The notes beneath the pieces are model-generated. The model was not told where the DNA came from, made no database searches, and saw nothing but the letters and a program-made list of their open reading frames with translations. 526 nt of DNA from Escherichia coli (lineage in GTDB: Bacteria > Pseudomonadota > Gammaproteobacteria > Enterobacterales > Enterobacteriaceae): NCBI RefSeq assembly GCF_003334255.1, contig NZ_QOWU01000225.1. One strand, written 5' to 3'. Below are positions 50-138 of this stretch, one piece after another. Each line of letters starts with the position of its first letter. Position 1 is the first letter of the stretch. The position numbers and the translations under genes are program-made.

Positions 50-86
50 TGCCTGATGCGACGCTAACGCGTCTTATCAGGCCTAC
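50..86 (+). repeat. REP palindromic unit, Z-type (probably Z2), plus orientation
   Basis: tgcctgatgcgacgctaacgcgtcttatcaggcctac. Stem GCCTGAT (51-57) pairs with ATCAGGC (76-82); inner stem GACGC (60-64) pairs with GCGTC (69-73); loop taac; 3' tail CTAC at 83-86. The T at stem position 4 (GCCTGAT vs GCCGGAT) is as I recall for Z-type units. Confidence 0.8.
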
Positions 87-103
87 AAATTCCCGCGCCA
101 TCC

Positions 104-138
104 GTAGGCCGGATAAGGCGTTTACGCCGCATCCGGCA
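104..138 (-). repeat. REP palindromic unit, Y-type, loop variant TT (unit B)
   Basis: Same as 3-37 except t at 123 in the hairpin loop (ggcgtTTacgcc), so the stem is preserved. gccggataaggcgtttacgccgcatccggc is a common E. coli REP variant. Confidence 0.85.

Follow-up and report, generated by a model that had tools for sequence, protein, structure and literature searches.

CTAC...GTAG junctions of an Escherichia coli BIME-2 array, probably mhpE-mhpT, as predicted RayT guide and cleavage sites and IS621 targets

The window (the whole stretch of 526 nt that was analysed) is best explained as part of a BIME-2 array of E. coli, most probably that of the mhpE-mhpT intergenic region, with junctions that would act as RayT guide and cut sites and that are targets of IS621; we put the probability of this reading at roughly 0.88. 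A GTAG at every REP 5' foot combined with alternating Y and Z2 units makes each Z2-to-Y boundary read CTAC-17 nt-GTAG. In the proposed mechanism, the HUH/Y1 enzyme RayT (TnpA_REP, YafM) would bind GTAG together with the bulged hairpin in single-stranded DNA, A3 and G4 of the GTAG would specify the C|T cleavage site, and the CTAC of the inverted neighbour would supply the cut site GGCC|TACA, between 83 and 84. Since the tag of the neighbour is the complement of the guide, each strand would present a cleavable CT at a distance of 20 nt from the guide, and each junction would offer on either strand a binding or guide element beside a cleavable site. The same CT forms the core of the 11-nt sequence that is paired by the IS621 bridge RNA, so that every junction is also an IS621 landing site. 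Direct results of our analysis are the anatomy of the array, the locus assignment from unit variants, the presence of rayT in relatives, the 101-bp copy-number polymorphism and the repeated natural insertion of IS621 at this CT in the mhpE-mhpT array.

The finding is correct, and what it says about the REPs and BIMEs of E. coli, about RAYTs and about IS621 is established knowledge. The only small additions are that IS621 has struck the mhpE-mhpT array repeatedly at the CT singled out by the sequence-only reading, and that one genome carries two copies within this array. The main value lies in a correct annotation, in which the window is non-coding BIME-2 DNA. Moreover, the tags explain the locus as a hotspot for IS621 (itself of practical interest as a bridge-RNA recombinase) and they explain the length differences between strains, which also break short-read assemblies. 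Resizing by RayT in vivo, if shown, would settle a question that has been open since 2010-2012; the window makes this question no more testable than many other BIME-2 arrays do.

Structure of the array

Repeat analysis resolves the window into a single tandem array with a period of 101, 5.2 copies and 97% matches. It contains 11 REPs (six Y and five Z2), and on the + strand each unit runs from a Y REP with GTAG over a 12-nt linker to an inverted Z2 with CTAC and a 17-nt linker. The features are:

1-526: whole window, 5.2 copies of the 101-bp BIME-2 unit, with A/B alternation giving a 202-bp super-period (repeat analysis)
3-37, + strand: Y REP with its 5' tag, GTAG-GCCGGATAAGGCGTTCACGCCGCATCCGGCA, 35 nt, an imperfect palindrome with AA/GC bulge
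104-138, 205-239, 306-340 and 407-441, + strand: further Y REPs, with a truncated copy at 508-526
38-49, + strand: short internal linker GTCGTGCGCAGA, 12 nt, from Y to inverted Z2, the BIME-2 'S' position, returning every 101 nt
50-86, - strand: inverted Z2 REP, TGCCTGATGCGACGCTAACGCGTCTTATCAGGC-CTAC, 37 nt, with its own GTAG on the - strand (an iREP on the + strand)
151-187, 252-288, 353-389 and 454-490, - strand: further Z2 REPs
87-103, + strand: 17-nt linker AAATTCYCGCGCCAYCC between Z2 and the next Y
49-168, 150-269, 251-370 and 352-471, + strand: short ORFs
122-226 and 324-428, - strand: short ORFs

On the + strand the Y REP is a predicted RayT binding element, given its match in sequence and fold to the published requirements: it agrees with the Y consensus (Nunvar 2010) as well as with the features required in Ton-Hoang 2012 (PMC3333891). 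The short ORFs (39 and 34 aa) repeat along with the array. In some RefSeq genomes a 'hypothetical protein' is annotated across the array, which is probably spurious.

Two unit variants, A and B, are found in strict alternation, and the 202-bp super-period is the result. They differ at three positions (a C/T in the Y loop, at unit position 20, and a C/T and a T/C in the linker): variant A has the Y loop TTCA and the linker ...CCCGCGCCATCC, variant B the Y loop TTTA and the linker ...CTCGCGCCACCC. Such a super-period fits growth of the array by in-register duplication of two-unit blocks. The B junction linker, AAATTCTCGCGCC, has a C|T at 193-194 and 395-396 that is missing from the A linker, AAATTCCCGCGCC; judged by its letters, this would be an extra candidate site for linker cleavage by RayT in every second unit.

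The array has the hallmarks of E. coli BIME-2 as known from Gilson, Bachellier and Hofnung, which combine alternating Y and Z2 with a short linker, a second linker type and tandem copies that vary between strains. Here the Y and Z2 consensus, the alternation with 12- and 17-nt linkers and the variable number of tandem copies (up to eight Y) were all found. There is no essential difference; the window stands at the long end for mhpE-mhpT and has the A/B super-period of 202 bp.

The CTAC...GTAG junctions

The sequence-only reading had described a CTAC at 83-86 followed by a GTAG at 105-108, a GTAG directly 5' of every palindrome on its own strand, and adjacent units that form inverted REP doublets. 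The CTAC...GTAG observation is real and is confirmed, apart from a slip of one base: the GTAG occupies 104-107, and positions 105-108 read TAGG. CTAC starts at 83, 184, 285, 386 and 487, and GTAG at 3, 104, 205, 306, 407 and 508. A GTAG is present at the hairpin foot, on the own strand, in 11/11 REPs and thus in both the Y and the Z2 type; the orientation of Y and Z2 alternates, and the doublet hairpins fold. Whether the junction is called 'tail-to-tail' depends on convention, because Nunvar et al. name GT(A/G)G the 'head'. The five junctions, all given for the + strand, are:

83-107: junction 1, CTAC at 83-86, linker AAATTCCCGCGCCATCC at 87-103, GTAG at 104-107
184-208: junction 2, CTAC, variant-B linker AAATTCTCGCGCCACCC, GTAG, with C|T added at 193-194
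285-309: junction 3, A linker
386-410: junction 4, B linker
487-511: junction 5, A linker

RayT gene and RayT substrate features

Of the 5426 complete E. coli genomes, 3575 (66%) contain rayT by megablast, which agrees with the two-thirds of E. coli reported by Ton-Hoang et al. In K-12 the gene (yafM) is located between yafL and an flhA remnant and is flanked by Y/Z2 BIME-2; these flanks carry the 101-bp BIME-2 unit, and a 17-nt linker separates CTAC from GTAG there. DLI.5a, the closest strain and the one with the longest array, encodes a RayT protein identical to that of K-12. About 34% of the E. coli genomes lack the gene, but arrays of this kind are kept in every one of the 5426. In O157:H7 a rayT about 93% identical to that of K-12 goes together with a 47-nt single-REP remnant at mhpE-mhpT; in this anecdotal comparison with DLI.5a and K-12, the presence of rayT does not predict array length at the locus.

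The earlier reading had suggested a search for a REP-flanked RAYT gene and a survey of related strains for IS insertions, and it had taken the absence of any RAYT homologue, together with a lack of strain-to-strain variation or IS insertion, as grounds against mobilisation. None of the three applies: rayT is common in E. coli and present in the closest strain, array length differs between strains in steps of 101 bp, and IS621 has entered the mhpE-mhpT array in at least seven genomes. Its REPIN/RAYT-substrate arrangement was found as well, in the form of Y/Z2 BIME-2 with bulged hairpins, free GTAG and REPIN-like doublets, and we regard the RAYT/REPIN/IS interpretation as supported.

Y/Z2 BIME-2 is the type of substrate that was used in the published experiments with E. 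coli TnpA_REP (RayT) (PMC3333891). RayT binds single-stranded REPs only with an intact 5' GTAG and a stem mismatch; its contact with GTAG is base-specific and leaves A3 and G4 to specify the C|T cut (PMC3333891, PMC3479197). It cuts TGCC|TGAT, GGCC|TAC(A/C/G) in the CTAC of inverted REPs, and C|T in linkers, does so either 5' or 3' of the bound REP, and can join ends (PMC3333891, PMC3479197). Binding, cleavage and strand transfer are thus taken from the literature and refer to in vitro work (PMC3333891, PMC3479197), with binding and cleavage published for other Y/Z2 BIMEs; REP mobilisation by RayT in vivo is unproven in the literature, and action of RayT on the mhpE-mhpT array in vivo is inferred. 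By sequence and structure the REPs in the window are predicted RayT substrates, with a 5' GTAG in 11/11, a 2x2 bulge in all single-REP folds and C|T iREP sites. The putative cleavage motifs, placed by sequence match only, are:

50-57 and repeats, + strand: TGCC|TGAT, cut 53|54
80-87 and repeats, + strand: GGCC|TACA, cut 83|84
Y foot, - strand: GGCC|TACG

Likeness to RayT/TnpA_REP (YafM) substrates and to the REPtron (Nunvar 2010; Ton-Hoang 2012; Messing 2012) extends from GTAG, the AA/GC bulge and the iREP sites to the unit itself, since the 101-bp BIME-2 unit of the window is the same as that flanking rayT. The mhpE-mhpT array is not part of the REPtron, as it lies about 127 kb from rayT in K-12, and it is a predicted substrate of the enzyme. 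The subterminal hairpins of IS200/IS605 are also similar (an imperfect hairpin with a 4-nt 5' guide, and a Y1 HUH enzyme that works on single-stranded DNA). They differ in that the REP system does not carry the transposase between its hairpins, that only two guide bases specify C|T, and that cleavage takes place 5' or 3' of the hairpin and can be distant.

IS621 insertions and targets

According to Durrant 2024 (PMC11208160), the IS621 bridge RNA pairs with the 11-nt sequence ATCAGGCCTAC, which has a CT core, and a mismatch at position 4 is tolerated. The window contains exactly this target of IS621 (IS110 family; Choi 2003; Durrant 2024), core included and without any difference:

76-86, + strand: natural IS621 target ATCAGGCCTAC, core CT at 83-84, with repeats at 177, 278, 379 and 480
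104-114, - strand: Y-foot variant ATCCGGCCTAC, one mismatch at target position 4
3, 205, 306, 407 and 508, - strand: repeats of the Y-foot variant, a second IS621-type site per junction

The window offers five exact sites on the + strand and six one-mismatch sites on the - strand; the sequence-only reading had proposed many equivalent target sites.

To look for insertions, the junction was joined to the right end of IS621, taken from Supplementary Table 1 of Durrant 2024 (PMC11208160), and this chimera served as the query. In that table the 'Donor' row gives the REP target (...ATCAGGCCTAC...) and the 'Target' row the IS621 RE-LE junction; the row labels appear to be swapped or shifted in extraction. 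Inside the mhpE-mhpT array we found eight insertions in at least seven genomes, with CUVET17-972, 5444, GZ04-0086, ws5-3, B25FEP and 23CRST029 among the strains. Every junction in this array reads ...TTATCAGGC-CT-[1277 nt]-CT-ACAAATTC..., so that these natural insertions have CT on both sides of the 1277-nt element; written out around the core this is ...ATCAGGC-CT-[IS621]-CT-AC..., with the element in the CT of the Z2 CTAC, which corresponds to 83-84 of the window. The array backgrounds differ, and the Z2 foot that is occupied is the first, the second or the third. In 23CRST029 (NZ_AP045796.1) two copies are present in the same orientation, at the first and third Z2 feet and 202 nt apart (L016 1329-4086), and the related ws5-3 and B25FEP have the third-foot copy only. 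Overall such events are rare: a flank-chimera search leaves at most 39 of 4932 records in which more than about 1.5 kb could be inserted at mhpE-mhpT.

IS621 is also found at Z2 feet in yjdM-yjdN (the naRNA4/REP325 array, L010) and in yaiL-fghA (L011), and at Y feet (...TTATCCGGC-CT-[IS621]) in ytfR-ytfQ (L014 2541) and hypF-norW (L015 2540), where the target is ATCCGGCCTAC, which has a C at position 4, the position that tolerates a mismatch. With insertions at Z2 and at Y feet, both sides of the CTAC...GTAG junction are natural targets. The yaiL-fghA REP cluster adjoins the mhp locus, and IS621-junction matches of 93.7% identity in several genomes all map to yaiL-fghA-like positions. The sequence-only reading had named REP hairpins as insertion targets of certain IS elements: IS621 does insert in the array, but what it recognises is the 11-nt foot ATCAGGCCTAC and not the hairpin. 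For IS1397 the literature states insertion into E. coli REPs.

Locus assignment and relatives

Matches to the window occur in all 5426 of 5426 complete E. coli genomes, and in the median genome the unit matches 23 or more places. Among these 5426 genomes no 100%-identical match was found (the best reaches 98.7%), and the longest exact stretch in common with a genome is 280 nt (17 fetched loci and the 5426-genome search). The best genome matches (98.7%) sit between mhpE and mhpT and, among the 17 fetched loci, the exact A and B 101-mers are found in the mhpE-mhpT intergenic array only. The window is therefore most probably part of the mhpE-mhpT BIME-2 array, an assignment that is well supported but unproven; it is based on the unit variants because the window has neither a unique flank nor a 100% genome match. 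The + strand is antisense to the mhp genes and, from the coordinates, would be the leading-strand template in K-12.

The five full units of the window include neither the degenerate first unit nor the variant last units of the array. Since these edge units are lacking, the source array must match or exceed in length the longest arrays seen, those of LR-46 and DLI.5a with 7-8 Y units, against five in K-12. When 100,044 species-representative genomes were scanned, the exact junction motif turned up beyond E. coli in Escherichia sp. E1V33 only. The contig concerned (NZ_RHJI01000028.1) ends inside the mhpE-proximal BIME-2 array (L013 11111-11147), in what looks like an assembly break from the repeat; as it reaches the array, the locus exists outside E. 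coli sensu stricto.

Copy-number variation and its cause

Array length was measured with a chimera of the two unique mhpE-mhpT flanks on a spread sample of 59 genomes. The inserts fall into five size classes that differ by steps of one 101-bp unit:

about 47 nt: 29 genomes
about 146 nt: 10 genomes
about 248 nt: 6 genomes
about 349 nt: 2 genomes
about 449 nt: 12 genomes

Gain and loss of units through replication slippage of the host or unequal recombination seems to us likelier than an action of RayT. According to Park et al., tandem REPINs are gained and lost locally through the replication machinery of the host; a deletion of five units in a mutation-accumulation line is documented by the same authors. 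The competing view is that RayT itself builds and resizes the array (models 7B and 7C of Ton-Hoang): a cut at CC|T would be followed by strand transfer or primed synthesis that changes the number of units, the linker C|T sites would be cut as well, and CTAC...GTAG would be the engine of the polymorphism. We consider this possible though doubtful. Multi-REP products have indeed been assembled by strand transfer in vitro (PMC3333891), DLI.5a, with one of the longest arrays examined, has an intact rayT, and Park et al. count more REPINs in RAYT-positive E. coli. Against it, repeats of 101 bp with 97-100% identity are ideal for slippage or unequal crossing-over without any nuclease, rayT-positive O157:H7 is in the shortest state, and the REPIN modellers (Park et al.) credit local amplification to the host. 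Circular BIME intermediates were not seen in a mobilome study, which found REP arrays to be protected. The length steps of exactly one BIME unit would suit RayT, and the A/B super-period fits two-unit duplication by either route; neither observation discriminates between RayT and the host.

Folding and RNA-like matches

Folded as single-stranded DNA, single REPs form hairpins with energies between -11 and -13 kcal/mol, in which there is a 2x2 AA/GC bulge and GTAG is unpaired (Y REP -12.2 kcal/mol, z -4.4; Z2 REP -12.9 kcal/mol, z -5.2). An inverted-repeat scan of the window reported none, because the REP stems are imperfect and shorter than its 9-nt seed. Doublets fold in both registers, at -26.3/-29.2 kcal/mol for Y-S-Z2 and -26.0/-29.1 kcal/mol for Z2-l-Y, with z between -4.6 and -6.5 and 0 of 200 shuffles folding as well; GTAG and CTAC are paired in either register.

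REPINs (Bertels & Rainey 2011) are comparable in that an inverted REP pair gives one long hairpin, the RAYT is single-copy and tandem clusters occur. Enterobacterial doublets are nevertheless asymmetric, as the REPIN authors note (Y is not Z2, and there is one indel). In addition, Y-S-Z2 and Z2-l-Y fold about equally, which leaves the replicative unit undefined by the fold.

Every Y-S-Z2 doublet scores above the Rfam gathering score (59.5) for naRNA4/CssrE (RF02564), with 85-87 bits on the + strand and 62-63 bits on the - strand. The matches, on both strands, are at:

6-83: naRNA4 RF02564
107-184: naRNA4 RF02564
208-285: naRNA4 RF02564
309-386: naRNA4 RF02564
410-487: naRNA4 RF02564

It was the REP325 array, at yjdM-yjdN, from which this family was defined, and the Y-S-Z2 doublet is what the two have in common, along with a near-identical 17-nt junction linker in yjdM-yjdN. 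The array in the window belongs to a different locus, and the likeness is one known here from sequence. Two further Rfam matches, to MIR5274 (25 bits, gathering 100) and to Pseudomonas P17 (20 bits, gathering 45), were rejected as chance.

It might be argued that the tags matter mainly as extra base pairs of a long Y-Z2 hairpin or cruciform with a role at the RNA or DNA level, and that transposases are irrelevant here; such a structure might be a 3' stabiliser or attenuator of the mhpE-mhpT mRNA, a nucleoid element of the HU/naRNA4 kind or a site for gyrase. The pairing of GTAG with CTAC in both registers and the naRNA4 matches (62-87 bits) point in this direction, as does the position of the array, which lies within the mhp transcription unit and is flanked by two genes of the same orientation; arrays also persist in genomes without rayT, and such functions of REPs are documented in the literature. 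Nonetheless, we regard it as an unlikely account of the tags. The doublet hairpin is better than two separate REP hairpins by 2-5 kcal/mol only, about half of the sampled genomes keep only the 47-nt remnant and thus do without a long array, singleton REPs also have a conserved GTAG, and RayT contacts this GTAG base-specifically in the crystal structure (PMC3479197). A structural or RNA role is compatible with the reading of the junctions as RayT and IS621 sites and is no competitor for the meaning of the tags.

Other explanations

A more speculative idea, to which we give little weight, is that the long and clean A/B array reflects a recent amplification catalysed by RayT, or else recombination by IS621 and its bridge RNA between identical CT cores; the latter is hinted at by 23CRST029, in which 202 nt separate the two IS621 copies. 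If either were true, the array between mhpE and mhpT would naturally report, in vivo, on a domesticated transposase for which activity in the cell has never been demonstrated.

Finally, the view that CTAC...GTAG is a chance by-product, in which one 101-bp unit was copied five times and its tags have no significance, has a negligible probability and can be considered refuted already: the five copies are not independent, but the tags occur on two REP types and also, around different linkers, at loci unrelated to this one, IS621 integrates precisely at the CT of CTAC, and GTAG 5' of E. coli REPs is documented genome-wide as highly conserved (PMC3333891). The same dependence applies to the count in the window, where CTAC-N17-GTAG occurs five times on the + strand against 0.01 expected (200 dinucleotide-preserving shuffles), the copies being non-independent because the window is one tandem array. 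Elsewhere in E. coli the geometry of CTAC and GTAG around 16 or 17 nt is found with different linkers in yjdM-yjdN (17 nt), yaiL-fghA (16 nt) and the rayT flanks (17 nt), and in related strains the tag is kept even in the degenerate edge copies of the array.
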